Source: Bacteroidota bacterium
GTDB taxonomy: Bacteria > Bacteroidota > Bacteroidia > Bacteroidales > JAADGE01
Direction: 5' to 3'
Length of the DNA stretch: 54,154 nucleotides
NCBI GenBank assembly: GCA_034659855.1
Contig: JAYEIA010000298.1
Span: 1-54,154, forward strand
The position numbers were made by a program, and so were the translations under genes. Positions 32,805-50,209 of the stretch are shown here, piece by piece (within the stretch, counting starts at the first letter, position 1; each line of letters begins with the position of its first letter). The notes beneath the pieces are model-generated. The model was not told the DNA's origin and made no database searches. It saw only the letters and a program-made list of their open reading frames with translations.

Positions 32805-33992
32805 TTAGTCACTGGTCATGATGAACAGGGGGTTCATTTCAAAACTATTATAAAATGGGCGTAAGCGCTCAGTATTGTAAAATTTATCAACCTTTAGCAA
32901 TTTTGATTTGCTGGTAACTACATCGATGGGAACATTGTCATATCTGCCGTTTTTGAGTACGACGAGTCTTCCGTGTACCCCTTTGAGAATAAGATCGAGT
33001 GCCAAATTTCCATAAGCCATCGGAACAATGGAGTCGATGGCGTCGGGGTCTCCTCCTCTTACAAGGTATCCCAGTTTCTGGTTTATTGTATTGATTTTTT
33101 TTCCTCTATTATTAGCGGCAGAAAGTTCTTTTAGCTTGTCCGAAACTAAATCACCAATACCTCCAAGTTTTGCGTGGCCGTATTGGTCTTTCTCCGCTTT
33201 GGCAAATACCCTGTCGCTGCCTTTAAATTTGGCGCCCTCGGAAACCAGAACAACGGAGTAGTTACTGGAGTTTTTCATTCGGTCCTCCAGAAGTAACTCT
33301 GTCAATTTGTTGATATCAAATTCATATTCCGGGATTACGCAGCGGTTGGCAGCCCCGGCCATTGTCGGCAACATGGCGGTGTATCCGGCATAGCGTCCAA
33401 AAACTTCAAGCACAAGAAAACGCTCATGTGAGCCGGCTGAAGTCCTCAGTGTATTTGTCATATTTATGGTTCGAGTAACGCAAGTACTAAATCCGATACA
33501 ATAGTCTGTACCCGGTACATCATTGTCCATTGTTTTTGGGATTCCCACAATTTTTACGCCTTCTTTGTAGAGTCTGACGGCATAGCTTAGCGTATCGTCT
33601 CCTCCAATCGGAATGAGGAAATCAATGTTAAGGAAATCAAGGTTTTTTAGAACTTCGGGGGTGAGATCATTTATTTCTTTTTTATATTTTTCTGTGTACG
33701 CTTCAGGCACAAAATTTTTGGGTAAGTGACTTGGTCTTGTGCGGGAGCTGTGAAGAAAGGTGCCTCCGGTGCGCCCGGCTTTGTTGACAATATTTTCAGT
33801 GAGTTCAATGAAGTTATTTGAATTGTCGGCTTTTTTGTCTCTGATTAGTTGAGTGATTCCGGCCCAACCTCTTCTCAATCCTATAACACGGTATCCTTCT
33901 CTTGTGGCTCTAATAGTAATGGCTCTGATTGCCGGGTTTAGTCCCGGAACATCACCGCCGCCGGTCAAAATTGCTATTGTTTTTTTACTCAT
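32805..33992 (-). CDS. PfkA-family phosphofructokinase, predicted PPi-dependent
   Basis: TGGGDVPGLN, GGDDT and PKTMDND (Asp/Lys signature), EVFGR. Confidence 0.85.
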   Translation of the reverse strand: MSKKTIAILTGGGDVPGLNPAIRAITIRATREGYRVIGLRRGWAGITQLIRDKKADNSNNFIELTENIVNKAGRTGGTFLHSSRTRPSHLPKNFVPEAYTEKYKKEINDLTPEVLKNLDFLNIDFLIPIGGDDTLSYAVRLYKEGVKIVGIPKTMDNDVPGTDYCIGFSTCVTRTINMTNTLRTSAGSHERFLVLEVFGRYAGYTAMLPTMAGAANRCVIPEYEFDINKLTELLLEDRMKNSSNYSVVLVSEGAKFKGSDRVFAKAEKDQYGHAKLGGIGDLVSDKLKELSAANNRGKKINTINQKLGYLVRGGDPDAIDSIVPMAYGNLALDLILKGVHGRLVVLKNGRYDNVPIDVVTSKSKLLKVDKFYNTERLRPFYNSFEMNPLFIMTSD

Positions 33993-34377
33993 GATCTATT
34001 TTTTTTAAATTAAACTGCAGGCCTGAAATAATCATAAAATCTTCAGCATCTTCAATGATGTCAGTATCTTCTTTGGAGTAATACCAGTTTATTGAGAGTA
34101 CTCCGTTTTTTTGTTTGAAATGTTTAAGTACTTTCAGCATTTCAATAATTTTTTTTGATGAACTTGTATTATAATAGGTTAATTTAAAGTTGAAAATCAG
34201 CGTTGTATGTTGAATTTGAGTGTATTCTTTAAGCCAATCAATTAATGGATCGTAAAACTCATTAATATCTTCAATGTATGATTCTCCTTCAATAGTGCAC
34301 ACGCCTTGATCGGCATTGAAATGAACTCGGGGTCTGTATAATTCATCTTCTTGGGGTGTAATAATTATATCTTTCAT
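33985..34377 (-). CDS. SiaC/DUF1987 family regulatory phosphoprotein
   Basis: P.V.F, GESYIED, FYDPL..WL, YYNTSSSK, INWYY motifs. Confidence 0.88.
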   Translation of the reverse strand: MKDIIITPQEDELYRPRVHFNADQGVCTIEGESYIEDINEFYDPLIDWLKEYTQIQHTTLIFNFKLTYYNTSSSKKIIEMLKVLKHFKQKNGVLSINWYYSKEDTDIIEDAEDFMIISGLQFNLKKIDHE

Positions 34378-34456
34378 TGGTTTTTATTTTATCAAAAAAT
34401 AAGAGATTTAGAGCAGAAACATAATAAAATATCCTTTTTTTTCAAAATAAAAGGAG

Positions 34457-35221
34457 CTATTTTATTGTAGAAATTTTTTTAAGTGTTAAGCTAATTTTTC
34501 TTACCGAAGCATGTTTTGCATTGGTTCCTTTACTGTGATTCAATACCCAGCCTGATATTTCTTTGAGTTCTTTAGTTTTATCTGTATTAATAAAAACTTC
34601 GTGCGTAGTATATTTGCCGTCTTTTTTTATATTTCCGAAACTGTTCTCTGCCGAAGAACCGTCTTTATACTTCACCATAATTGTCATGCGTTGTGATACC
34701 GAGCCATCGTCTTTAAACACCCTAATTCGAGCTGAAAGTGTATAAATCCCGTGTTCCGGATTTTTTATTTTATAGCTTATGGGGTTTGTCTTTCCGTCTT
34801 CGGGTAAATTCCAACTTTCTTTCAGGGGCCAGAGGTTATTGTCATCTTTTTTTGCGGTCTCATTTTTAGGCCGGTTTTTGGTAATTATTACTGCCGCTTC
34901 TTTTTCTTTGAGCTCGGCAACTATCTCAGCATATAGTTTTTCATATTTTTTTGTATTTTTGGAATAATACTGCAAAGTTTCTTCAAATTCTACTCTTGAC
35001 ACTTTGTGTTTTTTTAGTATGTAGTTGTATATATTTATTTCCTTTTCCTTTCTTAGTTCAGTTGTCAGCTTTTTTGCTCCTACAGCTCCGTCAGCAATAT
35101 GCATTTCCATTAAAATGGCTTTAAATTTTTTTCGATTAACTTTTTGGGTGTTGCTGTTGTTGCAAGCAACTAACAAAGAAATGACTACTATAACAACTAT
35201 GAGTGGTTTAATATTTTTCAT
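34457..35221 (-). CDS. DUF4296-domain lipoprotein with an extra C-terminal beta-rich domain
   Basis: Lipobox LLVAC, ILMEMHIADG, ILKKHKVSRVEFEETLQYY. Confidence 0.75.
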   Translation of the reverse strand: MKNIKPLIVVIVVISLLVACNNSNTQKVNRKKFKAILMEMHIADGAVGAKKLTTELRKEKEINIYNYILKKHKVSRVEFEETLQYYSKNTKKYEKLYAEIVAELKEKEAAVIITKNRPKNETAKKDDNNLWPLKESWNLPEDGKTNPISYKIKNPEHGIYTLSARIRVFKDDGSVSQRMTIMVKYKDGSSAENSFGNIKKDGKYTTHEVFINTDKTKELKEISGWVLNHSKGTNAKHASVRKISLTLKKISTIK

Positions 35222-35257: not shown

Positions 35258-38200
35258 TTATACTTTGTTCCCGATGATAATAACGTCATCAATTTGGTTT
35301 TGACTTCCTTTCCAGGCATAAAAGACTTGGTCCAAAATTTTCTGTTGTTCCGGCATTGACTTTTCTTGAATGGACAACAACAGTTGTTTAAATCGTTTGG
35401 TTTTAAATTTTGAGCCGGTTTCTCCGCCAAATTGGTCAACATATCCGTCTGAAAAATTATAGAGAGTATCCCCTTTTTTGAGTTGAAAATGAGTAGAGGT
35501 GAATGCTCTTTCCTTTATGTAGATTCCAATGGGTTGGCGGTTGGCTTTGAGTTCAATAATTGAATAATTGTAGTTGTGGTTTTTAATAAAATCTTCGGCT
35601 TTTTCTTCAGAATCTTTATAAAGCTTAATCGATTGGTCGTTTTCAATGACCTTGTAATCCTCCTCGGAAAAATTGCTGTTATGTCGAATAATATACAATG
35701 GATTGTATGCTCCGGAGAATTGAACCTCATAAGATTCTGAATCAAAAAGATAAAACGAGAGGTCCATACCGTCTTTTTGGTCAGAATCTTTACCCTCCTG
35801 ATGCAATGATTTTTTAATTTTTGACCGCAATCGGTTGAGTATGTCAGCGGCACTGTCCATACTTCGACGGGTAACCAACTCGTTAAAAAACGAACTGCCG
35901 AGCATACTCATAAATGCCCCGGGAACCCCGTGCCCGGTACAGTCTGCTGCAACTACAGCCGTGAAATTTTTGATTTTTTTCATCCAAAAGAAGTCTCCGC
36001 TGACAACTTCATACGGTTTAAAAAGAATAAAGTGTTCGCCCAATATTTCATCAATAGCGTCATCGGAGGGTAACACAGCTCTTTGGATTCTTCGGGCATA
36101 GTTTATACTATCCATGATCTCTTTTCGCTGTTTGTAGGCATAATCTCTCTGTGTTTCAATCTCTTCTTTACTTTTGATAATTTCGGCCGTGCGTTCTTCA
36201 ACCACTTTTTCGAGAGCGATTTTTTCTCTTTCTGAAGCTTTAATTCTGCGATCAACAAAAAATTTGAGAATTGCTCCGATTATTGCGATGTATATAGCTA
36301 TGGCCCACCATCTTCTGTATACCGGAGTCAATATTTCGAAGGCATAATCAGTATTTCCGATGATGTTTCCAAATTCATTTTTAGTTTCTATGAATAGGCG
36401 ATATTTTCGGTCGGGCAAATTTGTAAATCGCCGTTTATTGTCAGCCGTCCATGCTGTGGTGTCTTCGTCAAATCCTTTGAGAAATGTTCTGTATAAGATT
36501 TCTCCTTCGGTAGGGTAGTGCGGGCTGCTGAAAGAAAATTCTTTAGAATTAGCAGAAAAATTAAAAATTTGAGTGTATGTTGAATCAGGATAGAAATGTA
36601 TAAGTGTATCTTTTTTTAGGTTCTTAATTTGAACCAATTGAGGGGCAAAAAGTGATTTATAATCCCTTTCAGTACCGTATTTGTACATTAGGATTGTGTT
36701 TGTTCCGCCAATCCAAATGTTGTTATATACTTTATCGAAATACAAAGATTTCACGGAAAAATTTTTGAAAGGGATAAAGGGCGTTTTATAAATGGTTTGA
36801 CTTTTTATAATAAACATTCCGATATTTTTGCGTTCGCCGTCTGTGAAGAGGAAATTATCTTCGGGCAAACTGAGAATATCCCCTAACCATGAGATTTTTT
36901 TGTTATTTTCGACCAATTCAAAACTATTAAGATTTCTTGTGTTGGGGTTGTACCGAAACAATCCGTCATCAGAGCTGAAGAATGTACTTTCGCCGGATTG
37001 CAATATTTTTAAGGCTGTTACACCGGAGTCGGGTTCTAATCGACGGGTTGTGTTTTCAATTTCATTATACACATATACTTGACCAACAGAGTTCTCAAGA
37101 AAAATAAGCGTTGAATTTTGATCCTCCTTAATGTTTATTATATCTCCTGAAATATTATTTACGGTAAGTATTTTTTTGATTTTTTTATCATGAAAACGTA
37201 GGATGCTGAATTTATCAGTCATCCCGGCGTAGAATGTGTCGGAATTTTTTTTAGATTTCTCAAGACAAAATGTAAATTCGCTAACCCCTGAAGAGCCTGT
37301 GTTTTGGTCTTGTATAAGTTTTATTCCTTTAGTGGTAGCCGCTATTACCGTTTGGTTTATTATAATGTAATCGTGGCAAGCAATATCAAAATCGTTGAAT
37401 CTCTCAAATTTTGTATCTTTTAGAATATACATTCCTTTGTCGGAAGCAACAAGTATGTTTTTTTTATACTTTCCAATCTTATTTATCCGTCCGTTTATTA
37501 TGGTCGTTTCATTATTAAAGTAAGACCAATTACCGGTCAGATCAATTTTTGAAATGCCAAAGTCGGTGGCTACCCACAAGGCATTATCTCTGTCCGTGTA
37601 AAGTGCATTTACAGCATTATTTTGCAGGTTGCTTTTATTGTCTATTACCTTTAATATTTCGCCCGATAAGTCGGCAATTACCACTCCTCCTGTGAGTGTT
37701 CCCAGTGCAATGTATTTATCGTTTATTGCAGTTCCGCAATTTAGAGAGTGCTTTATTGCATATTGGCTGACATCGGCATCAATTGTTTCGATCCGATTGT
37801 TTTCTATACTGAAAAATCCTTGTTTTGAGGTGCCCAATATAAGTTGATCGGTTTGGGGTACGTTAAATAAAAAATTGGCATCTATGATGTGTACGCCGGA
37901 TTTGTTCTGAATTTTTTCAAATTTATTATTTTTATAAATACAGAGTCCGGTTGGTGCACTTTTAGTAGATTGTTCATTTGGTTTAAAGAAAATATATAGT
38001 TTATTGTTAATTAAAAATGAAGATTGTGCCCGGTTTTCGAATTTAACAGAGCGAATCGTTTTATTATTTTTGATGTACAGATATTGTTCTGAAACAAAAT
38101 AGGTTCTATTATTTGCACAATGGGTACCGAAAATATTTTCAGAACGACGGGTCTTATTTATGAGCTTGGCGTATGAGGTGAAATCATTAGAACCGTCCGG

Positions 38201-38533
38201 ATTTTTATTTTTAAGTACGCCTAAATCAAATAATCCTGAAGCATAGACTGTGCCTTTGGAGTCTGTGTCGAGGTCAAGTACTCTCATGCCGGAGGATGTG
38301 GATATTTTGAACCAATTTACACCGTCGAACTTAAGTATACCGGCAAAATTAGCAAAATACATAATACCTTTATGATCCTGAGTAATGGCAAAATTTTGCT
38401 CGTGAGTATTATAGTCTGACGGACTGTAATTTTTAATAAAAGGAATGGCTTTCTCGGCGGAGTAATTTTGTGCTTGAGAATAGATGCTTCCCAAACTAAG
38501 CCAAATGATAAAAATATATTTTAATTTAGACAT
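35258..38533 (-). CDS. Periplasmic beta-propeller/Y_Y_Y sensor fused to a SpoIIE/PP2C Ser/Thr phosphatase (SiaA-like)
   Basis: Signal peptide, propeller repeats (QDHKGIMYFAN, DRDNALWVAT), Y_Y_Y-like FTNLP..KY, TM, then VSGDFFW, DCTGHGVPGA, DGMD, SDGYVDQFGG, IDD. Confidence 0.92.
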   Translation of the reverse strand: MSKLKYIFIIWLSLGSIYSQAQNYSAEKAIPFIKNYSPSDYNTHEQNFAITQDHKGIMYFANFAGILKFDGVNWFKISTSSGMRVLDLDTDSKGTVYASGLFDLGVLKNKNPDGSNDFTSYAKLINKTRRSENIFGTHCANNRTYFVSEQYLYIKNNKTIRSVKFENRAQSSFLINNKLYIFFKPNEQSTKSAPTGLCIYKNNKFEKIQNKSGVHIIDANFLFNVPQTDQLILGTSKQGFFSIENNRIETIDADVSQYAIKHSLNCGTAINDKYIALGTLTGGVVIADLSGEILKVIDNKSNLQNNAVNALYTDRDNALWVATDFGISKIDLTGNWSYFNNETTIINGRINKIGKYKKNILVASDKGMYILKDTKFERFNDFDIACHDYIIINQTVIAATTKGIKLIQDQNTGSSGVSEFTFCLEKSKKNSDTFYAGMTDKFSILRFHDKKIKKILTVNNISGDIINIKEDQNSTLIFLENSVGQVYVYNEIENTTRRLEPDSGVTALKILQSGESTFFSSDDGLFRYNPNTRNLNSFELVENNKKISWLGDILSLPEDNFLFTDGERKNIGMFIIKSQTIYKTPFIPFKNFSVKSLYFDKVYNNIWIGGTNTILMYKYGTERDYKSLFAPQLVQIKNLKKDTLIHFYPDSTYTQIFNFSANSKEFSFSSPHYPTEGEILYRTFLKGFDEDTTAWTADNKRRFTNLPDRKYRLFIETKNEFGNIIGNTDYAFEILTPVYRRWWAIAIYIAIIGAILKFFVDRRIKASEREKIALEKVVEERTAEIIKSKEEIETQRDYAYKQRKEIMDSINYARRIQRAVLPSDDAIDEILGEHFILFKPYEVVSGDFFWMKKIKNFTAVVAADCTGHGVPGAFMSMLGSSFFNELVTRRSMDSAADILNRLRSKIKKSLHQEGKDSDQKDGMDLSFYLFDSESYEVQFSGAYNPLYIIRHNSNFSEEDYKVIENDQSIKLYKDSEEKAEDFIKNHNYNYSIIELKANRQPIGIYIKERAFTSTHFQLKKGDTLYNFSDGYVDQFGGETGSKFKTKRFKQLLLSIQEKSMPEQQKILDQVFYAWKGSQNQIDDVIIIGNKV

Positions 38534-38536
38534 AAA

Positions 38537-41488
38537 TTACCGGATTTCAAATTGTTTTACAAAGTTGGGATATTCTCTGAAAAAATCATTCAGAAAAATT
38601 CTGTTTGTTTCCAATAGAATTGCTGCTGTTGGAGTCGTATATATTTTGTTTTCTTCAGAATTGAAGGCTGTTATCAGTTTTCCGTATTCGAAAGTCATTT
38701 TTTTATCCGCAGAATATATCTCTCCGGTTATTATAGTGTAAAAATTTGTCTCGAGCTTGGGAATAAATTCTTTACCGGCAGTTAATAACAACCGTTTAGA
38801 ATTTTTTGTAAAATGGATAAGATCTGAGAACGTGATATTTGCGAATATAGGAAATTCCATTATCAGTCGAATTAATTCAAAGTCCAAAAGTTCACCTTTA
38901 TCTCCGTTGTATGTAATTTTGTTGTAAATTTCCACAAGCTCCGGGTATCTTATGTTAAATCTGTCAATCTCTGAATCAAGAGCTTCCGGAGCGATGGCTT
39001 TTAAGCTTAAAGCCGAAACTTCTTTAATAATACGGAAAGGATTTAATAGGTTTACTTTAAGGGTTTCTATTGTTTTTTGATGGTTGTAGTTTTGTAAGAG
39101 TTCAATGGCAAGTGTCTTGGCGTATATGCTAATACTTGGGATGCCGGCAAATGCAATATCTATAAGTCGGGGAGCGGGTTTCATATTTTCCTGCGGAGCG
39201 AAAAGCCGGAGTGCTTTTATCGTTTCACGGTTTGAGAAATTATTGAGTATAGGTAATAGAATTTCTTTGTGTGTGTCGTTAAAGACTAAGTCTGCAATTT
39301 CCAAAGCAAAACTTCTTGCGTCATCTTCTTGGGCTTCAGTGTATTTTCTAATTTTGTTAATTGATTGTTTATCGTATAATATAGAAAGAATATCATAAAT
39401 ATATATTTTCTTTTGTATTTTACACTGTTGTAGTTCGCCATGAATTTTTTCCCGTTTGCTTAGGCTTGTCAAATCATTGAGGCAGGCGCAAGCATAAGTG
39501 TAGTCTGCAATGGTTGAATTTAGAATCTGATTTGCAACGGAATTCAATTTTTCGGGTAACTCCGTATTGGTGTGGCTCAGGGCTTTAATTATTCTATTGT
39601 TTACTTCAGCAACCGGATGATTAAAATAGGCAAGTAAAAACTGTTTTGAATGGCTGCTTTCAATACTTTCAAAGATTTTAATGATATCTGTTTGCAGCTT
39701 TATGTTACCTTCATACTTTCTGAAGTAAACCGATAATTGAGGTATTATTTTTTCGCCGACATGAAATATTGCTGAGTAAGCGGCATCTTTTCGGTCGATG
39801 TCCGACAGCATATTCAAGAGCGAACGATAAAATATTTCGTGCTTCGTTTTTCCGGCCGCAATAATTGCATGGTAGCTGACATGGTTGTCACTATCTCTCA
39901 TGAGCCTGTGCAGTATTTTTTCAATTTTGTATATTTTATATTTGTATAAATACTTTGCTGCCAATTTCCTTTTTTCAACATTTTCAGATTTTGAAAAATT
40001 TACCAGTTTATTGAAGCTGTACTCCGTTTTATCTGCGATTTCTGTATTATGATAAGGATAGAGGGTATGCAGAATATGTTCTGTTTTTTGGCTAACAGAA
40101 CCTGTGGCTGATTTAAGTCTTTCAACTAAAATATTAAGAATGATTTTATATTTAGAAGGTTCCTTTGACGTTTCACGTTCCGATAAAATATCTTGAAGTT
40201 CGATTTTGTATTCTTTATGAGTTGCGGAGGCAATTTTAATCCATACCAGCGTAATAAGGAATAAAAACAGAGAAAAAATAACCAAACTTACGCCTTGGAA
40301 CAGGGCAAAACCTAAAATAACTATACCGGCAATTATTCCTCCGTAGGCTTTGGGACCGCTTTCAATAATGTTCTGAAAACGTATGCGTTCTTCTTTGGGT
40401 AAGGGTTGATATAAAATTTGTGTTGCCGGGTCGTTAAATGAGGTTCGTACTGCTCTGGAAAACAGACGCCCCATGGCCACAAAAGAAAAGAATAATGTAG
40501 CCGTACCGTAAAAGAGGCCAAACAAAGAAGCAAAGAAAAAACTTATTGCCAGAACAACAGGGAATGCTAAGAGTCCTAATTTTATTCCGTATTTTGTGAT
40601 TAATTTACCTGATATAAATGTTTTTAAAATAAATTCAATGATTGCACTAATTCCAAAGAAAACTCCGACAAATGCCGTAAGATTATTGGGTTCCGGGAAT
40701 TCTGTTTTCGTTTGAGTTTGAAATATAAAATCGGCAAACATTTGGGCGAAAATTGGAACCAGAGCTATCAGAAAAAATAATCGATAGTATTTGTGCTTTA
40801 GAAATTTTGAACTGCTCTTTTTCTTTTCGGGTCTTTCTTTTTGTTTCCGGGTTTTTACGGATGAAGTTTTCATTAATTCAAACTTCTTTAATATGGTTAC
40901 CATTAAAACAAAGGCCAAGCTTAATGATAAGCCGGATAATATAAGTATGCCTTCGGTTTGAATATGATTAATAAGAAAAGGAACCGAAAAGAAACTGATT
41001 ATTGCGGCAATAACTTCTCCGCCGGATATGAGAGCAAATAATCTTTTTCCCTGTTGAATGGAGAATATACGCCCCAACATACCCCAAAATGTAACGGCAT
41101 GTACATAAGCGAAAATTCGTATCCAAGCATAAATGATAAATACAAGGATGAGCGAGTTTGGCTTTAAATAATAGAGGACTAACAATATCGGCACAGAAAC
41201 GGATAAAAAGGCCAATGCGCTTTTAAGCGTTGCTGTAAAACTAAATTTATTTTGAATTCGGGCGAATAGTTTGCCGGCGAAAATGACTAATATTCCGGCA
41301 ACAATAAAGGATAAAGGAATGAGTTCACGGCTAAAATCCTTATTATTCAATAGCAATGAAGTCGCTCCCGTAACAAAGAACGCAAAGGCAGAGCCGGCAA
41401 AAAATGAATATGCCATGGGGAGTGCAATAATTTTCGACTCTCCTTTCTTTACATTGAGCAACTGCTGTATGTTTGCTTTAATATCCAC
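38537..41488 (-). CDS. NTT/TLC-like MFS transporter fused to HEAT repeats and a degenerate cNMP-binding-like domain
   Basis: About 12 TM helices with FW...QGKRLF and PATQILYQPLP motifs, long helical-repeat region, C-terminal PIFANI...FYTIITGEI. GTG start overlaps the upstream stop. Confidence 0.78.
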   Translation of the reverse strand: MDIKANIQQLLNVKKGESKIIALPMAYSFFAGSAFAFFVTGATSLLLNNKDFSRELIPLSFIVAGILVIFAGKLFARIQNKFSFTATLKSALAFLSVSVPILLVLYYLKPNSLILVFIIYAWIRIFAYVHAVTFWGMLGRIFSIQQGKRLFALISGGEVIAAIISFFSVPFLINHIQTEGILILSGLSLSLAFVLMVTILKKFELMKTSSVKTRKQKERPEKKKSSSKFLKHKYYRLFFLIALVPIFAQMFADFIFQTQTKTEFPEPNNLTAFVGVFFGISAIIEFILKTFISGKLITKYGIKLGLLAFPVVLAISFFFASLFGLFYGTATLFFSFVAMGRLFSRAVRTSFNDPATQILYQPLPKEERIRFQNIIESGPKAYGGIIAGIVILGFALFQGVSLVIFSLFLFLITLVWIKIASATHKEYKIELQDILSERETSKEPSKYKIILNILVERLKSATGSVSQKTEHILHTLYPYHNTEIADKTEYSFNKLVNFSKSENVEKRKLAAKYLYKYKIYKIEKILHRLMRDSDNHVSYHAIIAAGKTKHEIFYRSLLNMLSDIDRKDAAYSAIFHVGEKIIPQLSVYFRKYEGNIKLQTDIIKIFESIESSHSKQFLLAYFNHPVAEVNNRIIKALSHTNTELPEKLNSVANQILNSTIADYTYACACLNDLTSLSKREKIHGELQQCKIQKKIYIYDILSILYDKQSINKIRKYTEAQEDDARSFALEIADLVFNDTHKEILLPILNNFSNRETIKALRLFAPQENMKPAPRLIDIAFAGIPSISIYAKTLAIELLQNYNHQKTIETLKVNLLNPFRIIKEVSALSLKAIAPEALDSEIDRFNIRYPELVEIYNKITYNGDKGELLDFELIRLIMEFPIFANITFSDLIHFTKNSKRLLLTAGKEFIPKLETNFYTIITGEIYSADKKMTFEYGKLITAFNSEENKIYTTPTAAILLETNRIFLNDFFREYPNFVKQFEIR

Positions 41489-42510: not shown

Positions 42511-43189
42511 TCTTTAGTTTATTTTTTGTTTTAATTTTTATACGATAGCCCAATCGAAAGAATGTCATGTAAATATTTTCATTTAAAATGTCCTTGGCTT
42601 CAACCAACATCAGACTAAAATTTGCGGGGAGCTTAAAAAAAACAGACGGCCCTATAAACCAGTGTCCTTCAGAAAATGGAATTCGATCTTCTCCGGCAGA
42701 AAGCGGACGTTCAAATTCCCATTTTCCGTAGCAGAGTATTCCGGCATTAAATTTTTTTGTCACTCGGTATTGTGCAAATTGTACAAGGTAGTAGTGGTTT
42801 TCAGAATTCTCATTTAAACCCCAAAAAAGTCTTTCCTGTATATTCAGAAGTATTTTTTTGTTGAAAAGGGTGGTGTTGTAGTCTAATCGCAAACCTGTCC
42901 AGATGCCGCCGAGCTCATCAAATTTAGAGTAGTTAAAAATTTTGAAACGACCTACATTTGCCCCCAGCATAATATCGGTTCTGCCGATGGCATGTTGTCC
43001 GATATATTCCGAATATTTTTTTGGCAAGATGATATGGTCATCCGGTCGCCAGCGAAATTCCCACGGTTTATTTTCAATATTCAGCCTTATTTCCGGTGAA
43101 ATTTTATACCACATCTCAAAATCAGACTGAGCCTGCACGCTACAAGCTGTGGCAAAAAATAGGGCAACAATTGTTATATTCTTTTTCAT
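42503..43189 (-). CDS. Exported hypothetical protein, probable small outer-membrane beta-barrel
   Basis: Signal peptide ending VQA, aromatic-rich alternating strands (TGLRLDYN, FAQYRV, FFRLGYRI). Confidence 0.6.
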   Translation of the reverse strand: MKKNITIVALFFATACSVQAQSDFEMWYKISPEIRLNIENKPWEFRWRPDDHIILPKKYSEYIGQHAIGRTDIMLGANVGRFKIFNYSKFDELGGIWTGLRLDYNTTLFNKKILLNIQERLFWGLNENSENHYYLVQFAQYRVTKKFNAGILCYGKWEFERPLSAGEDRIPFSEGHWFIGPSVFFKLPANFSLMLVEAKDILNENIYMTFFRLGYRIKIKTKNKLKND

Positions 43190-44403
43190 TTTGCTGTTCG
43201 TTCAAAGAGTTCTTTTAATTCTGTCTTGGGCATAATGGATCGGTTTTTTTTATAAGCGATGGCTTTGATTTTTTTTAGAATATTTTCTGCTTGGCTTTTT
43301 GTCAACTGATAGCCCATTTCTTCAGCCTTATTGTAAATTACTCGTTTACTGGCCAACTGAGTAATGAGAATTGTACGCGGGATATTCAAAATCTTCTGAG
43401 GGTCAAACGGCTGAAAACTGTAGGTATCTATAAAGGGAGTGCCGGTTGATATTGAATTTACTCCCGTTCCTATAATTGGGTCGGTAACTTTTATGGGTAC
43501 TCCGGTATATTTACTCACTTGCTGTGCAATGGAATTTATTTGAAGTAAGTCGGGCTTAGATAAAAACAGTTGTTTTCCGTTAATGCCTGTCCTTTCCAAG
43601 AGTTGTTCGTTTTCGTTTGCAAGGATAAACAGAATAAGTTCGGTGCGTGTCAGTCCGTTTCTTTCGGCCAGCCCCAGCCAAGAGGTCGACGGCAGTCTTA
43701 TTCCTTTTTCTATGGCAGATAAATTATTGACTAGAGAAAAGCCAAAATCGTCATGAAAATGGGAAGAGTAATTAACCGCCGGATCAGAATTGCTTAACAG
43801 TATATCCATAAATTTATCGGCTGCTTTGGGATATATTGCCCCTCGTGTATCTCCAAGTCCGACAGTAGCAACACCAAGCTCCGATAGGACTGACGATGTT
43901 TCAGCAATAAGCTCCGGATCTGAATCAAAAGCTCCGGCGAGTTGAATGTCTATTGGAATGCCTTGGGCAATGTCCAGAGCATACTTTGCAAGCCCCGTTC
44001 CGAGTTCAAAGGCTTGTTTTGGTGTCTTGTGCATCATTAAATCACAAAGTCGCTTTGAGGCAGGCAAAACAAAGGCTATTCTTCCATATTTTGCATTTTT
44101 AATTGTGTCGTATGATAGTTTAATTTCTTCTTTATTACTTCTGCAGTTAATTCCTAAATAACAATTGTCAATATGGTCTGCTACTTCTCTTATGGTTTCT
44201 CTTTCTTCTTTACCGATAGATGTAAATCCTACACCAAATACTAAATGGTCGGGGCCGTTGTTACCGAAAATATTTGCATGGGCCCGGGCTATCTTTATAC
44301 GGTGTTTGGCCGAAAGTATAGTTTTTGCCTGTGCACCGTCCCGAGCCACTTCCTCCCAGAACACCAGGCGGTTATTTTTTAGAGATTCATAAACTCTGTC
44401 CAT
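43186..44403 (-). CDS. LeuA/homocitrate-synthase-like DRE-TIM Claisen-condensing enzyme (no regulatory domain)
   Basis: EEVARDGAQ, GDTRG, HFHDDFG, GLAERNG, PIIG motifs; 405 aa. Confidence 0.8.
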   Translation of the reverse strand: MDRVYESLKNNRLVFWEEVARDGAQAKTILSAKHRIKIARAHANIFGNNGPDHLVFGVGFTSIGKEERETIREVADHIDNCYLGINCRSNKEEIKLSYDTIKNAKYGRIAFVLPASKRLCDLMMHKTPKQAFELGTGLAKYALDIAQGIPIDIQLAGAFDSDPELIAETSSVLSELGVATVGLGDTRGAIYPKAADKFMDILLSNSDPAVNYSSHFHDDFGFSLVNNLSAIEKGIRLPSTSWLGLAERNGLTRTELILFILANENEQLLERTGINGKQLFLSKPDLLQINSIAQQVSKYTGVPIKVTDPIIGTGVNSISTGTPFIDTYSFQPFDPQKILNIPRTILITQLASKRVIYNKAEEMGYQLTKSQAENILKKIKAIAYKKNRSIMPKTELKELFERTAK

Positions 44404-44409
44404 ATTTAA

Positions 44410-47037
44410 TTAAAATTTAAAAGTCAAACTAATGTGATGATTCTGTTTGTTTTGATATAACATAGAAGCCAGCTCCCCTGAAGCTGAATCTAATCCCGGA
44501 GAAAAGTATTCTTTATCCAAGATATTAAAAACGGAATATTGAATGCTGAGTCCTGTTTTTTTATGCGTATAGCTAATTGCTCCGTTTGTGATTATATAAG
44601 CCGGAAAATATTCTGTATTTGTAGGAACAGTTGTATTGTAGCCTGTTATCCTTTCAGAAATATAGTTTGCTCTTAAATTAATATTCAGGCGGTTGAAAAA
44701 TAAATAGTTTATACCGACATTGATCTGATGATCGGCAATGTCACTGATACGCAGTTTTTCGTAGGCATTTCCCAAGCTATCAGAAAGCGGATTGCCCTCC
44801 TCGTCAAGTGGGTTCAATGTATATGGATTTGTATAAGTGTAGTTGGCGTATATATTAAGGTTTCCTTGCCTATAATCGGCAAAAGCATTAATGCCCTGAA
44901 TTTCTGCTTGTCCGATGGCTTGGTTTTGGTTTGTGCTTTCTCCGTCGGGGAGTTCAACGTTTACTTCTTGTATAATGTTGCTGTAATTGGCATGATAAAA
45001 CGAGGAGCTGATTTTAAGCTGATTATTAAAAAAGTGTTTTCCAATAACAAATTCATAATTTTTCACTTTTTCCGGTTTAAGAAATGGGTTGGCCAGTTCT
45101 CTTTTATCTTCTGCCGTAGAGTATTTTTCTTTGTTGGTTGCATCTTTAAATGCTTCTGCATAAATAGCTTTTATTGTATATGAACCGGGAGTATATACAA
45201 TAGCAAGTCTGGGGTTGAAGCTGTTTCCGTAGCCTTGGGTTTCTCTCACTTTGTTGTTGTCGAAACGTGCACCAAGAGTTAATTGTAGATTGTCTATCGG
45301 ACGTATTCCTGCTTGAACATATACTCCGAGGTCTCGGGAAAAAAATTGGTTGCCTCCGGGTATATTCGTTCCTGCAACTCCTTGTTCTTGGGCACTGTCA
45401 GAACTGAATGAATAGTAATCGCCTTGTACCGAGCTAAATCTGGCTTCGAAACCGGAAACTATATCCAGCCACTGCCTGTGTTGGTAGAGTAGTTTCAGCT
45501 CTTCTCTCAGTTGATTTGATTTTTGGAATAAGTAGTAATTAATCGGTTCGGGAACTACACCGGTTAACAGTTGCGGCAATCCGAAATTGCCTAAGTAGTA
45601 TCGGGCCGGCAAAAGAACCACGTTGTTTTCTTTACCAAAAGTATGCGTTTTAAATCGTGTAAAACTGGATATATTCAAGTTTGAATTGATGTCTTTATCA
45701 TATTTTGCATACATATAATTATGGATGGGGTTCCAAGTCCCTCCTTCTCCGGTGGTCAGGAAAATAAGATCATTATATTGGGTACCGGTTCCTTCGGATT
45801 TATTCCAAGAGCTCCAGCCGAGTATGAAGTCATAAATTTGCAGTTTGGCATTAATTGAGTAGGCTTCAGTTTTATCTTTGTAGTTTACAGAATTATACAC
45901 CGAGTTGTCTGCATCAATAGCCTGTCGGATTCCTGTGTTGGTCGGGGTAATAATAGTACTGTCAGCATTTATGGTGTACAAATCACTTGCCTGCGGGTTT
46001 TGAATCATAAAATTTTGCACATTATCGTAGCCGTTGATGCTCAGAACAGAACGAAAATGGTCTTCATGCTCCTCCATGGTGTATGAAGCAAAATCGTGCT
46101 CAGACTTATCCGACAGGTCTTGTTCGTCGGACAGGAAAAGCCTTCCCGTTACAGAAAAAACAATGTTTCCGGTGTTGTTTTTGATAGCCAGCGACCCATC
46201 TGCAAACTTTGTATTATATGAGCCATATCCAATCCGTGTATTTAATGCGATATTGTTATTTTCTGTGAAAAAATCTTTCGGGTCTTTAGTTATAATATTA
46301 ATAGCTCCCAAAAAAGCATTGGAGCCGTACATTGTGGAAGCCGGGCCGTATATTACTTCAATACTTTTAATATTGCTCATGGCATATTGCCTCGACAAAT
46401 ACACATTGCTTGACCAGAGGTCATTTTCTTCTATTCCGTCAATAAGAAAGAGTGTTCGGTTTGTATTAATCGAGCGATAGCCCCTTTGATAAATGTGTGA
46501 ATACAGATTTCCGTTGGAGCGAGAAATGTCAAACCCCGGTAAGTCGTGAATAACTGCTTCCAAGTCGAGGTATCCTCTTCGTTCAATTTGTTTGCCGGAA
46601 AGTAATAAAGCGGTAGCCGGAGTTTCATCAATATTTTCCTTCTTTTTTGAGATACTTGTTATGGTGGTTTGATCCGTCCTTTGTTTTATGTCTGATATAA
46701 TATTGATAAACTTTATCGGATCGGATGAATAGGTCGGCTGATAATTTGGATTGACATCAAGGAGTTTTGCAGCATAGTATGAGGCTAAACTGTCATTCTC
46801 TATTTCAAAGTATATTTTACTGATTAGACTTAAAGCCTCGATTTGTTTTTTTCTGTCAAAATTATTAATGCAATCATCAAGCATATCAATGGCTTCATAG
46901 AAAATTCCGGAATTAAATTTCTTTTTGGCATCTTCAATTTCAGTCCATCCGCAATTACCGGAGTTTTGTGCAGAAGATATACTCGGTAAAAGTAAAAATA
47001 TTGAGGAAAGGATTATTATGTATGTATATTTTCTCAT
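44410..47037 (-). CDS. TonB-dependent receptor with N-terminal TPR-like helical domain
   Basis: Signal peptide, helical repeat, plug (YQRG, FLIDG, IEVIYGPASTMYGSNAFLGAINIIT), LKPEKV, C-terminal Phe. Confidence 0.93.
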   Translation of the reverse strand: MRKYTYIIILSSIFLLLPSISSAQNSGNCGWTEIEDAKKKFNSGIFYEAIDMLDDCINNFDRKKQIEALSLISKIYFEIENDSLASYYAAKLLDVNPNYQPTYSSDPIKFINIISDIKQRTDQTTITSISKKKENIDETPATALLLSGKQIERRGYLDLEAVIHDLPGFDISRSNGNLYSHIYQRGYRSINTNRTLFLIDGIEENDLWSSNVYLSRQYAMSNIKSIEVIYGPASTMYGSNAFLGAINIITKDPKDFFTENNNIALNTRIGYGSYNTKFADGSLAIKNNTGNIVFSVTGRLFLSDEQDLSDKSEHDFASYTMEEHEDHFRSVLSINGYDNVQNFMIQNPQASDLYTINADSTIITPTNTGIRQAIDADNSVYNSVNYKDKTEAYSINAKLQIYDFILGWSSWNKSEGTGTQYNDLIFLTTGEGGTWNPIHNYMYAKYDKDINSNLNISSFTRFKTHTFGKENNVVLLPARYYLGNFGLPQLLTGVVPEPINYYLFQKSNQLREELKLLYQHRQWLDIVSGFEARFSSVQGDYYSFSSDSAQEQGVAGTNIPGGNQFFSRDLGVYVQAGIRPIDNLQLTLGARFDNNKVRETQGYGNSFNPRLAIVYTPGSYTIKAIYAEAFKDATNKEKYSTAEDKRELANPFLKPEKVKNYEFVIGKHFFNNQLKISSSFYHANYSNIIQEVNVELPDGESTNQNQAIGQAEIQGINAFADYRQGNLNIYANYTYTNPYTLNPLDEEGNPLSDSLGNAYEKLRISDIADHQINVGINYLFFNRLNINLRANYISERITGYNTTVPTNTEYFPAYIITNGAISYTHKKTGLSIQYSVFNILDKEYFSPGLDSASGELASMLYQNKQNHHISLTFKF

Positions 47038-47104: not shown

Positions 47105-50100
47105 CTACTGATTACTTTCCGGTTTCTCAATATCCGACCCGATGAACCGTTCCCAGTTTTTATCACTGATTTCAGTCGTTATTTTGTTTTTTACTGAGCG
47201 GAGTAATTTATCTATATCAATATTTATTAATTCTATGCTGTTGTCGTCGTAGGTTGCCAGAATTACGCTTTTGTTTCTTGATAAATCTATGGAGTGAACC
47301 CAAGAATGTTCCGGTTCTATAATCGTGGCGTAGTCAAAGTTATTGTATGACCAAATTTTTATAGATTTGTCATACCCGCATGTATAGAGCCTCTCTGAAT
47401 CATCGTCATAAACCAAACTGTTGACAGTAGACTTATGGGCGTAAAATTCCTTTTTGATTTTTTGATTGGCAATGATTAAAACTTTTCCTGTACTTGTTGC
47501 TGCAAGCAAGTCGTTATTTTTACCCCATTCGATTGAGCTTAACAGGCTTTCTATCGTAATTTGTGTATCAATATTAAATGGTTTTGATACGTTAAACGTC
47601 AGAATAGTTCCGGTTTTTTCGGCGACGGCAATTTTAGTAAAATTAGCATTGACGGCAATATCCACTAAATTTGTCTCAGTATTTTTAATGAGGAACTGTT
47701 CATGAGTCCCGGTAATATTTTGATGAAAGATAATCTTTCCGCTGTTTCCGATTGATATTGCATTGGTATTGGAAACAAAAATTAGATCTTGGAGAGAATG
47801 AGAGGAGGTGTTGAGAATTTTCAGTGTATTATTCGATTTTTTAAGTAATAAAATATCTCCGTTATCCATACCAAAAACGGTGCTTTTCCCGTCGGGGCTA
47901 TAGGCAAAACATTTAATAAAATGTGTTTTGGATTTGGTGTATATGTCTTTCAAATAATAAACAGTTATGAGTTTTCCGTCGGGGGCGAATTTTCGTATTG
48001 AGCCGTCATCCGAGATAGTAATAAATTCACTGTTGTCGGGCGAATACATACCGCCCCTTACAGCCGCAGAATGTCCTTCGGGACTGCGTATTAAAACATT
48101 TTCTTCGGCAATCAGGGATAGAGCATTGAATATTTCTGAGTCGTATTCTTCTTGCTCAGATGCATTGAAGAATTGGTGGGCGAATGAGACCAATTGATAA
48201 GGAAGTTGTTCCTGCTTCGCGGTTAATCGTTTTGCTTTTTTATTATCGTTAAATATTTTTGCGGCTTGGATAGCCAATGATTTTGAAGTGGATAATTTTC
48301 TGGCTGCCACAGCATTTTTTTCAGACTCGATAGCTTTTAGGCGTTGTTCAATTGCAACTTTTTCTCGTTCCAGTGCAAGGTTTTTTAAATTTTTTGCAAT
48401 ATTTAATAAGGTGTCAACCTTCTTCTTCTCTTTGGTTACTTGTTTGGTTGCTTTTACGGCTCTGGTTTTTTCTCTGTCGGCAATTGCTCGTTGAACAACG
48501 GCAACTTCTTTTTGATCTTCAGCCAATAAACGTTGTTGTTGGGCAATTTGTTTTTGTTGGTTGGCAATTAATCCATTAGCAATGGCATCACGTTTTTGTT
48601 CCTCCGCATATTTGCTTTTTGAGAGTGCAATTTTTTCATTTTCTTTGGCTTTGTTTTCACTGGCTTCAGCTTTTATTTTCAGGTTCATGGCAACAATGAG
48701 AAACATTATTGAAATTAATGAGGCCGAACCTAAGAAAAAAGCAACTATTCGTGTTCTTTTAATTTGCTTTTTTTGTTTTTCTTCCTTGGCGAGCAACATT
48801 TTTTTATACTCTTTATCGCTGTATTTTATATAAAGAAGTACCCGTTCAAAAGCCGGGTCATAGCGCTCAGCCCAAAATTGATTCGGTGCATTTTCTTCAA
48901 CCCATTGCAAAGCTAATTGAAGGTCCGGATTAGTGAGCAATCCTCCTTTCCCGGCCTGGTAGAGTTCGGCTGACTTAGACAGTCTGAGGTAGGTTTGTGC
49001 CGATTCAGTTTCTTGTGAAACCCAGGTTGCAAGCCTGTCCCAAACCTTCATAATACTTTCATGAGAAATGTCCAATATAGAGTCGGCCGATAAAGTGGTG
49101 TGTATGTCAGGCATTAAAAAACTATTACCCTCTTCTCTGAACTTTTTAGTTACGGAAATTATATCGGCCGGGTTTGTTCCGGTAATTTTAGAAATTTCGT
49201 TAATAGTTGCCGGTCGTCGTATGCCTTTTTTGTCATCACCGAGTTCTGTTAATGACTTAAATATTCGCTCGAGGGTTATGCGGTCTTCTTCCTTTTCAAT
49301 TGAATTATATATAGCTTCGGCATGACTTGATAATGCTTTGGTTACCGTGCCAACAGCCTCATAATGATTAATATCAAGCGCTGCATTGGGCGGGGAATGT
49401 AACAATTTATAATCCCATGTACGCATCATGGCATGTTGCAGTACCAGTAAATTATCTCCATTTGAACTGATATCCTTTTGCAGTTGTTTTATCAGACGGT
49501 CAGTAATTTCAACACCCAAAGTTTTTGCGGGCTCTGTTATGGACTCCATTTTTTGTTGTTGAGTCATTTTGGGTATGAGGTAATGTCCAATATTTATTGC
49601 TTCGGACAGTCCGGAAAAAAATGAGCACTCACCCAAAAAATCAGACCGTAATGATAATATGACATAGAAATTTTTATTTTCACAATGAATGGCATCAAGC
49701 AAAAGGCTTACAAAGCGATCGGCATTATTTTCCGAATCTTTATTTTGCGAGTCATTTTTGTATCTGAAAAGTTCTTCGAACTGATCAATATATAGCAATA
49801 CATTCTTGTTGTGCTCAGTATTTTCAAATAACTCAGACAGGCTAAGTTCATTGTTTAAAAAACGGGATTTTATTTTTCTGATGCTCCCGATTCTACTGCC
49901 ATTTTCAGTTTTAATTATTCTGTGGAGTTGCAAAGCCAAATTACCAATGGGGTCGTCCCCCGGTCTCGAAACAGCAACACTCCATTTTTCCTTTTTTTGA
50001 ATGATTTGAGGAATAAGTCCGGCTTTTATCAGTGAGGATTTACCACTTCCTGAAGCACCGGATATCGCAACAAAATTTGAGCTTTTCAAAATATGAGACA

Positions 50101-50209
50101 GTTCCCTAATTTGTTTATCTCTTCCATAAAACAAATTGCTCTCACTAATATTGAAGCTCCTAATTCCCGGATAAGGGTTTCTGTTTGAAATGGTTTGGCT
50201 TACTGACAT
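47105..50209 (-). CDS. nSTAND1-type NTPase + TM helix + coiled coil + WD40 propeller
   Basis: NPYPGIRSF, Walker A GASGSGKSS, Walker B YIDQFEELF, LRSDF, ISHES...W; hydrophobic helix; WD40 repeats (GHSAAV, AHKSTV...DKSIKIW). Confidence 0.9.
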   Translation of the reverse strand: MSVSQTISNRNPYPGIRSFNISESNLFYGRDKQIRELSHILKSSNFVAISGASGSGKSSLIKAGLIPQIIQKKEKWSVAVSRPGDDPIGNLALQLHRIIKTENGSRIGSIRKIKSRFLNNELSLSELFENTEHNKNVLLYIDQFEELFRYKNDSQNKDSENNADRFVSLLLDAIHCENKNFYVILSLRSDFLGECSFFSGLSEAINIGHYLIPKMTQQQKMESITEPAKTLGVEITDRLIKQLQKDISSNGDNLLVLQHAMMRTWDYKLLHSPPNAALDINHYEAVGTVTKALSSHAEAIYNSIEKEEDRITLERIFKSLTELGDDKKGIRRPATINEISKITGTNPADIISVTKKFREEGNSFLMPDIHTTLSADSILDISHESIMKVWDRLATWVSQETESAQTYLRLSKSAELYQAGKGGLLTNPDLQLALQWVEENAPNQFWAERYDPAFERVLLYIKYSDKEYKKMLLAKEEKQKKQIKRTRIVAFFLGSASLISIMFLIVAMNLKIKAEASENKAKENEKIALSKSKYAEEQKRDAIANGLIANQQKQIAQQQRLLAEDQKEVAVVQRAIADREKTRAVKATKQVTKEKKKVDTLLNIAKNLKNLALEREKVAIEQRLKAIESEKNAVAARKLSTSKSLAIQAAKIFNDNKKAKRLTAKQEQLPYQLVSFAHQFFNASEQEEYDSEIFNALSLIAEENVLIRSPEGHSAAVRGGMYSPDNSEFITISDDGSIRKFAPDGKLITVYYLKDIYTKSKTHFIKCFAYSPDGKSTVFGMDNGDILLLKKSNNTLKILNTSSHSLQDLIFVSNTNAISIGNSGKIIFHQNITGTHEQFLIKNTETNLVDIAVNANFTKIAVAEKTGTILTFNVSKPFNIDTQITIESLLSSIEWGKNNDLLAATSTGKVLIIANQKIKKEFYAHKSTVNSLVYDDDSERLYTCGYDKSIKIWSYNNFDYATIIEPEHSWVHSIDLSRNKSVILATYDDNSIELINIDIDKLLRSVKNKITTEISDKNWERFIGSDIEKPESNQ

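Follow-up and report, generated by a model that had tools for sequence, protein, structure and literature searches.

A conserved Bacteroidales gene cassette with a membrane-anchored STAND NTPase, a TPR-extended TonB receptor, an isopropylmalate synthase-like enzyme, and an NTT-HEAT carrier

A conserved set of seven genes, g1 to g7, is found at positions 35258 to 50209 of contig JAYEIA010000298.1 from a Bacteroidota bacterium of the order Bacteroidales (GenBank assembly GCA_034659855.1). The contig was analyzed over 54,154 nucleotides (nt), referred to below as the window. The set combines a membrane-anchored STAND nucleoside triphosphatase (NTPase), a TonB-dependent receptor, a synthase-like enzyme, a small secreted protein, a carrier, and a sensor, with an O-methyltransferase (g5) as an accessory member. 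It is syntenic in at least six GTDB families of the order, as well as in metagenomes, and very probably represents a single functional cassette maintained by selection. Its function can be proposed tentatively: with a probability of roughly 0.35, the cassette is a module that makes, exports, recaptures, and senses a secreted, sometimes methylated, 2-substituted malate.

The initial annotation of the window had joined these genes with three more into a string of ten co-oriented open reading frames (ORFs), g1 to g10, on the minus strand (32805 to 50209; Table 1). Its coordinates and nine junctions were reproduced exactly (in the order from g1 to g10, 67 nt, 6 nt, overlaps of 4, 8, and 1 bp, 3 nt, 36 nt, 79 nt, and an overlap of 8 bp). 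Nearly all of its domain calls were recovered with Pfam. The cyclic nucleotide monophosphate (cNMP)-binding domain of g6 and the TPR of g2 are invisible to Pfam, and the g4 barrel has no family; each of these is backed by other evidence, described below. In NCBIfam, all specific models score far below their cut-offs for the ten proteins, save an ATP-dependent phosphofructokinase (ATP-PFK) subfamily model on g10.

Table 1. Genes of the ten-gene string and signals at its two ends (positions in the window)
Feature	Position	Strand	Assignment	Basis
g1	47105..50209	-	Membrane-anchored nSTAND1-WD40 NTPase	Pfam, hydropathy, motifs
g2	44410..47037	-	TonB-dependent receptor with signal peptide and TPR-like N-terminal extension	Pfam, alignment
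g3	43186..44403	-	Divergent isopropylmalate/homocitrate/citramalate synthase-like protein, DRE-TIM, HMGL-like	Pfam, invariant motifs
g4	42503..43189	-	228 amino acids (aa), secreted, probably a small DUF2490-like outer-membrane beta-barrel	ESM Atlas neighbors
g5	41488..42510	-	Methyltransf_2 O-methyltransferase with dimerization domain; accessory gene	Pfam
g6	38537..41488	-	NTT/MFS-type membrane domain, HEAT, C-terminal cNMP-binding-like domain	Pfam, profile comparison
g7	35258..38533	-	Reg_prop/Y_Y_Y periplasmic sensor, one transmembrane (TM) segment, cytoplasmic PP2C/SpoIIE	Pfam, hydropathy
g8	34457..35221	-	DUF4296 lipoprotein	Pfam
g9	33985..34377	-	SiaC-family phosphoprotein	Pfam
g10	32805..33992	-	Phosphofructokinase, housekeeping	Pfam
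Terminator-like site	32749..32766	-	GC-rich hairpin and T-run, just 3' of g10	
Hairpin and -7-like box	50320..50353	-	Hairpin at 50353-50328, then TATATTTG at 50327-50320, about 110 nt 5' of the g1 start codon	

Distribution and boundaries of the cassette

The genomes and metagenomes searched are samples, in which "not found" does not equal absent, and the ORFs of the fetched loci are crude stop-to-stop calls. Within these samples, a full-length g6 ortholog (36 to 49% identity) is found in 9 of 40 related genomes; all but one of the nine fall within the 24 genomes of the same family. In all nine loci, tblastn shows the neighboring cassette genes to be colinear up to the contig limits. When species-representative genomes were scanned with the g4 alignment, 13 loci were returned, all with the same gene order; in the order-wide sample, g4 is present in 11 of 401 genomes and 6 of 236 genera. 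Five further loci fetched from the order-wide search are likewise colinear, including two divergent ones (24 to 48% identity), of which one has 65% GC, and a metagenome scan with the g3-family alignment revealed the cassette in 8 of 20 loci of at least 6 kb. After deduplication, there are 35 distinct loci with two or more cassette genes, so the neighborhood search called for by the initial annotation does find the homologs together and in the same order. Genes g1, g2, g3, g6, and g7 occur together in 16 of the 35, accompanied by g4 in 15 of the 16. Most of the remaining loci are cut by contig ends. Contig ends do not explain the lack of g3 in locus L031, of g7 in L060, and of g4 in L051, L060, and L063.

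The same gene order persists in unrelated genomic surroundings down to 24 to 46% protein identity, which puts the arrangement beyond chance. The GC content of the cassette tracks that of the host from 27% to 65%, the upper end being represented by the colinear cassette of L038. Beyond g1 and g7, the genes differ among genomes and include those for radical SAM, YchF, aldose epimerase, TrkH, DJ-1, ChaN, amidohydrolase, and PKD proteins. Genes g8 to g10 adjoin the cassette only in a genome of the same genus, that is, in 1 of the 34 other distinct loci. The conserved unit is therefore g1 to g7, shorter than the ten-gene string: the initial proposal of one functional unit holds for these seven genes across families and fails for the last three, which the same annotation had already suspected of being bystanders.

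A phylum-wide sample yielded no g3 match at E ≤ 1e-60 in 400 other genomes and hence added no context from more distant Bacteroidota. The cassette is therefore both rare and patchily distributed. The literature search, which was limited to open-access papers and bioRxiv, with the papers cited here represented by excerpts, returned no description of this composition.

Components of the cassette

The sequence of g3 assigns it, as a distant member, to the isopropylmalate/homocitrate/citramalate synthase family. It contains an HMGL-like domain (PF00682; 103 bits) and scores best against isopropylmalate and homocitrate synthases, below the cut-offs of all the named equivalogs, LeuA (108.9 versus a cut-off of 532), NifV (106.4 versus 462.9), CimA, and Lys20. 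Pfam detects no LeuA_dimer regulatory domain on it. The invariant motifs of the g3 family are WEE.ARDGAQ, H.H.D, and SWLG..ER, with ARDGAQ and H.H.D present in 22 of the 22 aligned sequences; we take the R-D-G-x-Q and H-x-H elements to be the metal and substrate motifs of this synthase family. With 259 proteins at E ≤ 1e-10, g3 defines a well-conserved subfamily of its own. In its own genome, which is 96% complete, g3 is the sole LeuA-type gene found, next to one Iso_dh gene. It follows that g3 does not act in leucine synthesis. A phosphonate role was also considered and rejected: the best match to the phosphoenolpyruvate (PEP) mutase model PF13714 in this genome reaches 29.8 bits, versus a cut-off of 31.5. 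The window contains two HMGL-like genes about 4 kb to the left of the string, at 27216-28064 and 28252-29265 on the plus strand (282 and 337 aa), near a biotin/lipoate ligase-family gene (25571-26314). These two genes gave no match to g3 in tblastn at E ≤ 1e-5.

Outside the cassette, relatives of g3 (36 to 43% identity) are found in high-GC bacteria, in two contexts. In the first, the synthase gene lies directly 5' of ORFs that cluster with the large (5 of 12 loci) and small (4 of 12 loci) subunits of aconitase; these calls include a Pfam check on the genes of L059 alone, and L061 and L086 are apparently near-duplicates. This arrangement is that of alkylmalate pathways. Five such loci (L059, 5039-10891; L056; L058; L061; L086) encode, in a row, Rieske (LigXa-like, 3 of 5) and DUF3179 (2 of 5) proteins, the g3-type synthase, and the aconitase subunits, and may represent an uncharacterized alkylmalate pathway. 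An MFS (major facilitator superfamily) gene is found near the L061 locus. The second context consists of fusions of about 900 to 1,000 aa, in which a g3-type synthase is linked to a canonical cNMP-binding domain through an unassigned middle part of about 350 aa. They form three clusters (P0339, P0341, and P0342); the fusions of L074 (9764-12667) and L080 (1511-4522) are 57% identical over 893 aa and retain an intact FGEIAL...RTA motif. From their sequences, these proteins look like an undescribed cyclic nucleotide-regulated synthase, and this association provides a regulatory link between the synthase family and cNMP-binding domains. A YrdC-like nature of the middle part was considered and is not claimed, as a BLASTP comparison of a Sua5/YrdC neighbor in L072 with the L080 fusion returned nothing of note (E = 0.023).

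Three forms of methyltransferase accompany the synthase. The first is g5 (Methyltransf_2, 161.9 bits, with a dimerization domain), whose nearest solved relatives are the natural-product phenol O-methyltransferases MmcR (4.5e-48), CalO6, and DnrK; a Methyltransf_2 gene is present in 3 of the 35 distinct loci. These relatives hint, speculatively, at an aromatic side chain in the synthase product. L060 provides the second, a Methyltransf_11/25 gene that stands apart from the synthase gene and whose product is nearest to HvrF (1.4e-11) and to the yeast trans-aconitate 3-methyltransferase (6.8e-6). The third is a synthase-methyltransferase fusion, found in L051 and in cluster P0174. Judged by sequence, the three associations are unrelated in form and independent, which lends substance to the methylated small molecule predicted by the initial annotation. 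However, most cassettes have no methyltransferase, and methylation is thus an accessory step. In the variant cassettes L051 (6084-9184) and L060 (9228-12032), a class I methyltransferase takes the place of g4, and a gene for an AAA_18 P-loop kinase-like protein is inserted between those for the receptor and the synthase. In L060, the protein encoded by this inserted gene has no match in the PDB.

In the g6 protein, Pfam recognizes TLC (43.7 bits versus a cut-off of 21) and HEAT_2 (34.1 versus 27.7). Its membrane domain occupies residues 1 to 430 and has about 11 or 12 helices. The C-terminal part gives no match to the Pfam cNMP domain PF00027, even at E ≤ 1. A profile built from 17 orthologous C termini nevertheless matches the cNMP-binding domains of the protein kinases PKA and PKG (E = 5e-7 for PKA RII). 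This cNMP-like domain has no conserved phosphate-binding cassette, and only L27, F99, and G139 are invariant. Accordingly, g6 can be placed among the NTT-HEAT-cNBD proteins (cNBD, cyclic nucleotide-binding domain), with the cNMP-like part recognized at the profile level only. This family was described in 2017 and, in the excerpts of that paper, left uncharacterized (Major et al. 2017, PMC5381601); NTT-HEAT(-cNBD) proteins are widespread, being listed there for cyanobacteria, chlamydiae, oomycetes, and Bacteroidota. The three-part architecture of g6 is that of the published fusions, whereas its cNMP-like domain is degenerate and Pfam silent. No functional study of NTT-HEAT-cNBD proteins was found in the open-access or bioRxiv literature, and the cassette provides NTT-HEAT(-cNBD) proteins with a fixed set of genomic partners and a testable link to a small molecule. 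Within its family of genomes, g6 is a distinct, patchy paralog, about 30% identical to a copy of about 1,080 aa that is found in most of the family. That copy was examined as a functional hint and discarded, as no cassette genes lie beside it in five relatives.

The receptor g2 consists of a Plug domain and a TonB barrel (Pfam), preceded by an extension of about 100 aa that is conserved, as are two of its Cys residues, and that the alignment places ahead of a TonB-box-like VTSVSKK and the plug. All NCBIfam models fall below their cut-offs (the best, TonB-hemin, at 166 versus 317; the SusC model TIGR04056 at 52.9 versus 368), and Pfam does not see a TPR in g2 itself. A profile of the extension matches 2,767 proteins at E ≤ 0.001. 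Ten of these matches were scanned and include five TonB receptors or fragments and three small outer-membrane barrels of the OMP_b-brl_2 type, several of them TPR positive. Because of these relatives, the extension is read, at the sequence level, as a periplasmic TPR module that recurs attached to outer-membrane barrels, often at the N terminus of TonB receptors or of such small barrels. In Fec-type receptors, a signaling domain occupies the same position ahead of the TonB box. The TPR-module-on-barrel arrangement is absent from the literature consulted for other questions, no search having been aimed at it. The cassette adds a TPR-extended class to the TonB receptors. Contig C6 of the same genome (L094, 4112-10896, minus strand) encodes a TonB receptor that is 40% identical to g2 and lacks the TPR extension, followed by a 592-aa fused aconitase-family protein and a TPR-PP2C protein. 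The fused aconitase was rejected as a partner of the cassette: an ortholog of at least 75% identity is found in 22 of the 24 same-family genomes (in 2 of them in pieces), with or without the cassette.

The g4 protein has a signal peptide and no Pfam or NCBIfam match. Its family comprises 59 clusters, all unnamed or annotated as "hypothetical protein"; an alignment of 33 sequences has 25 invariant positions, about half of them charged. None of these 33 members matches PF10677 (DUF2490) in Pfam at E ≤ 1, and three match Phenol_MetA_deg weakly. In the ESM Atlas, the model of g4 (predicted TM-score, 0.67) has DUF2490/OMP_b-brl barrels as its structural neighbors (TM-scores, 0.67 to 0.72), suggesting that g4 is probably a small DUF2490-like outer-membrane beta-barrel. 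Barrels of the DUF2490 type are described as outer-membrane barrels with buried charge networks (bioRxiv 10.64898/2026.07.29.741452, excerpt).

The g1 protein combines an nSTAND1 NTPase domain (PF20703, 294.6 bits versus a cut-off of 27.1, residues 12 to 419) with WD40 repeats. The NTPase domain is followed by a hydrophobic helix (about 488 to 506), a K/E/A/Q-rich stretch, and a WD40 propeller (about 720 to 1010). Its Walker A motif, GxSGSGKSS, is retained in 12 of 12 orthologs, and the Asp of the Walker B motif, hhhhDQFEE, in 11 of the 12. All ten full-length orthologs have a single strongly hydrophobic helix near residues 490 to 515, as judged by a hydropathy script and the positive-inside rule, with no dedicated predictor. 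Since basic residues precede this single helix on its N-terminal side, the NTPase should be cytoplasmic, and the K/E/A/Q-rich stretch and the propeller should be periplasmic. The juxtamembrane region is the best conserved part of the protein and the WD40 propeller the least conserved one (25 to 35% column identity). The cassette places a STAND NTPase with a predicted periplasmic sensor domain in a metabolic, not a defense, context.

The sensor g7 starts with a signal or TM segment, which is followed by a 720-aa propeller region (Reg_prop and Y_Y_Y, about 22 to 740), a TM helix (about 742 to 760), and a cytoplasmic SpoIIE/PP2C domain. The PP2C motifs ADCTGHG and DDV are found in 13 of 16 aligned orthologs. 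In four loci (L018, L038, L039, and L051), which comprise the remaining three aligned orthologs and L051, the output domain is instead a histidine kinase HATPase_c. The exchange of the output domain with retention of the periplasmic part is what a ligand sensor predicts. The sensing in the periplasm that the initial annotation ascribed to the system accords with the predicted topology of g1 and g7.

Proposed function and its alternatives

Several known systems share parts with the cassette, and none of those compared (Sia, Fec-type, polysaccharide utilization locus [PUL], defense, nonribosomal peptide synthetase [NRPS] and NRPS-independent siderophore [NIS], and phosphonate systems) fits it, in line with the earlier statement that no characterized system has this composition. 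One parallel in layout is siderophore Fec/Fpv signaling (FecA-FecR-FecI and FpvA-FpvR-PvdS). There, too, the TonB box of a TonB receptor is preceded by an additional periplasmic module at the N terminus, the receptor is encoded together with inner-membrane proteins that span the membrane once and expose large periplasmic domains, and a small-acid biosynthetic gene lies alongside. In contrast, the extension of g2 is TPR-like and not STN, no STN, FecR, or sigma-70 r2/r4 domain is found among the ten proteins, and the candidate transducers would be a STAND NTPase and a PP2C or histidine kinase propeller sensor, through putative contacts.

Natural-product clusters that involve alkylmalates offer a second parallel (PMC10776993, bioRxiv 10.1101/2022.11.22.517531, and PMC11408123, in excerpts). 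The cystargolide/belactosin cluster combines a LeuA/homocitrate synthase-family enzyme (the isopropylmalate synthase homolog CysA), an S-adenosylmethionine-dependent methyltransferase (CysG, which methylates 3-isopropylmalate), and an MFS-type carrier (the pump CysB) (PMC10776993). The same trio is present in HiVir/pantaphos clusters (HvrC synthase, HvrF methyltransferase, and HvrI MFS carrier, next to the HvrD/E isomerase). Unlike these clusters, the cassette lacks genes for an isomerase, a ligase, a PEP mutase, or peptide formation, g5 belongs to a different methyltransferase family, and nothing in those clusters corresponds to the receptor, STAND, and sensor genes.

SiaABCD of Pseudomonas aeruginosa resembles the locus of this genus in having a membrane PP2C with a periplasmic sensor and a SiaC-family protein nearby. 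It differs in that no SiaB kinase, SiaD cyclase, or GGDEF domain is encoded by the ten genes, the link to SiaC is not conserved, and PP2C is replaced by a histidine kinase in four loci. A TonB receptor and a Reg_prop/Y_Y_Y periplasmic sensor are also shared with the Bacteroidota PULs that have hybrid two-component sensors; however, the cassette has neither SusD nor glycoside hydrolases, g2 is not of the SusC type, and g7 lacks the kinase-receiver-AraC output of those sensors. No IucA/IucC or NRPS synthetase is found by Pfam among the ten proteins.

The make-export-recapture-sense scheme builds on gene order, domain content, intact catalytic motifs, and the methyltransferase and cNMP domain associations, all of which are observed, and on a predicted topology; the product, the directions of transport, the ligand, and all protein contacts are what we infer. 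In the cytoplasm, g3 would condense acetyl coenzyme A with a 2-oxo acid to yield a 2-substituted malate, an alpha-hydroxy-dicarboxylate of the citramalate, homocitrate, or alkyl-/benzyl-malate type, which a methyltransferase would modify in some lineages. The compound might leave the cell via g6 at the inner membrane, gated by the cytoplasmic HEAT and cNMP-like domains, and then cross the outer membrane through g4. The receptor g2 would recapture it, most likely with a scarce metal or some other cargo bound. Occupancy would be reported inward by g7 (through its PP2C or histidine kinase output) and g1, as two inner-membrane sensors facing the periplasm; the WD40 propeller of g1 could reach the TPR extension of g2. 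The overall function would be akin to siderophore "cell-surface signaling" performed by different parts. A more specific version, which we regard as doubtful, is that g2 reports its occupancy through the TPR extension to the WD40 propeller of g1, the STAND protein oligomerizes, and, together with g7, it gates the release by g6 of a self-made alkylmalate. If true, this would be the first cellular role for the NTT-HEAT family and the first STAND switch wired to the outer membrane. Should the product be a secreted chelator or signal, the cassette would represent a minimal one-enzyme system in uncultured anaerobic Bacteroidales.

A number of observations weigh against such a secreted malate derivative. 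Among the ten genes, Pfam detects no siderophore-type synthetase, TonB/ExbBD, periplasmic binding protein, or metal regulator. A search for a shared motif 5' of g1 in 12 loci returned only AT-rich 8-mers, present in at most 6 of the 12. The variants without g4 (L051, L060, and L063) or g7 (L060) indicate that neither gene is indispensable, and L051, L060, and L063 carry the additional AAA_18 kinase-like gene. A WD40 propeller that is the least conserved region of g1 would be unusual for a fixed protein-protein interface. The solved relatives of g5 act on phenolic hydroxyls, a poor fit to a simple aliphatic acid. Neither a substrate nor a direction has been assigned to the NTT-HEAT clade, and the known substrates of NTT carriers are nucleotides, not carboxylates (PMC5381601, excerpt). 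Finally, STAND NTPases are best known from conflict systems (bioRxiv 10.1101/2023.09.22.558884, excerpt).

One alternative is a scavenging locus, in which g2, g4, and g6 import an exogenous compound across both membranes (for instance, a cofactor, an organic acid, or something resembling a nucleotide), g7 and g1 sense it in the periplasm in the manner of PUL hybrid sensors, and g3, alone or with a methyltransferase or kinase, acts on it in the cytoplasm by conversion or detoxification. The hybrid two-component sensors of Bacteroides PULs are of the Reg_prop/Y_Y_Y type, the organism has no leucine pathway and hence depends on import, and the variation of the accessory enzymes (O-methyltransferase, class I methyltransferase, and AAA_18 kinase-like protein) is typical of salvage or detoxification. 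However, enzymes of the LeuA family are biosynthetic and catalyze Claisen condensations that thioester hydrolysis renders effectively irreversible, and the relatives of g3 elsewhere are found in biosynthesis-like contexts. TonB receptors and NTT-family carriers are known importers (PMC5381601, excerpt), but the cassette encodes no SusD, the SusC model scores far below its cut-off on g2, and no hydrolase or catabolic enzyme is detected by Pfam. On balance, scavenging appears somewhat unlikely.

Alternatively, the product of g3, methylated or not, could be a diffusible alkylmalate autoinducer that is released through g6 and g4, detected by g7 and g1, and concentrated by g2 at low cell density. 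Methyl-esterified small acids do act as signals elsewhere, as in the case of 3-hydroxypalmitic acid methyl ester (3-OH-PAME) in Ralstonia; three of the six conserved proteins are signaling proteins, the output of g7 is swapped, and the genome itself is very rich in PP2C and SiaC genes. Cell-cell signaling is nevertheless distinctly unlikely: most cassettes are devoid of a methyltransferase, Pfam detects no transcription factor in the cassette, and we know of no precedent for the energized TonB-dependent uptake of an autoinducer.

A conflict or surveillance system, with a STAND core that senses an invader or envelope damage via its periplasmic WD40 propeller and the other genes acting as effectors or decoys, would explain the variable WD40 region and the patchy distribution (11 of 401 genomes of the order); in L060, a helicase plus restriction endonuclease-like gene lies 5' of g1. 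Proteins of the nSTAND1 type do occur in putative conflict systems (bioRxiv 10.1101/2023.09.22.558884, excerpt). Yet Pfam finds no effector domain on g1, and PADLOC reports nothing above noise for the ten proteins (best match, a 17.3-bit P-loop hit with an E value of 6.6e-4 over 25 residues). Moreover, cassette GC follows that of the host, the flanks are housekeeping genes and not defense islands, and a biosynthetic enzyme and two transporters are conserved alongside g1, all of which makes a defense role very improbable. That the genes lack a common function and are neighbors by descent only is hardly credible: kin do share gene order, and all loci come from one order as far as GTDB labels show, but this order is kept, tightly packed, at 24 to 46% identity across at least six families while both flanks change.

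Surroundings of the cassette

The initial annotation had also proposed dephosphorylation of SiaC as the output of the pathway, which did not hold up as a conserved output. SiaC is unlinked to the cassette outside the genus, and the PP2C domain gives way to a histidine kinase ATPase in four loci. The g9 protein itself is a SiaC family member in Pfam (126.9 bits versus a cut-off of 24.5), and scores 77 versus 150 against the NCBIfam SiaC equivalog; g7 scores 165 versus 700 against the SiaA equivalog. Within this genus, g7 may well have g9 as its substrate. This pairing is nonspecific, however, in a 3.5-Mb genome whose partner-switch genes are unusually numerous, with 14 of the SiaC family and about 33 of the SpoIIE/PP2C type. 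On three of its contigs (C31, C97, and C199), a SiaC match is found no more than about 1 kb from a SpoIIE match, and contigs C150 and C348 also carry both.

Signals are present at both ends of the string. Downstream of g10, the terminator predicted by the initial annotation corresponds to a terminator-like hairpin with a T-run. Upstream of g1, the -7-like box TATATTTG is found where that annotation placed it. The -7-type motif is common in the window (93 copies versus 74 expected; 93 were reached in 4 of 100 shuffles), and the box is therefore weak evidence. As the motif is common in this AT-rich window and a second copy, TAACTTTG, lies at 47086-47079 in the 67-nt gap between g1 and g2, a single transcript of all ten genes can only be called plausible. 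The hairpin next to the upstream box probably ends the upstream 131-aa gene. Across the window, neither terminator-like sites (15 found versus 14.9 expected by shuffling) nor sigma-70-type promoters (59 versus 62.2) are enriched, and the sequencing runs listed for the host (four DNA runs from one study) include no RNA runs.

As the initial annotation had noted, the string is free of the repeats resembling miniature inverted-repeat transposable elements (MITEs) that are found farther to the left. A scan of the window places these repeats at about 5.1 to 29.8 kb, with none between 32.8 and 50.2 kb. They form families of direct and inverted copies of 47 to 91 nt, 77 to 98% alike, in intergenic positions at about 5.2, 10.9, 12.3, 16.9, 23.1, and 29.3 to 29.8 kb (5126-29785). 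The ORFs beside the string include one of 1,092 aa to the left (19743-23021, minus strand) and the one of 131 aa just 5' of g1 (50514-50909, minus strand).

At the distal end of the string, g10 scores 233.8 bits against the Pfam PFK model and passes the NCBIfam ATP-PFK subfamily model (258.5 versus 253). It belongs to a tandem of phosphofructokinase genes (31705-33992, minus strand), in which g10 (395 aa) contains the motifs GGDDT and PKTMDND and the downstream gene (323 aa) contains GGDGS and PGTIDND; we take the former to be the signature of pyrophosphate-dependent and the latter that of ATP-dependent enzymes.

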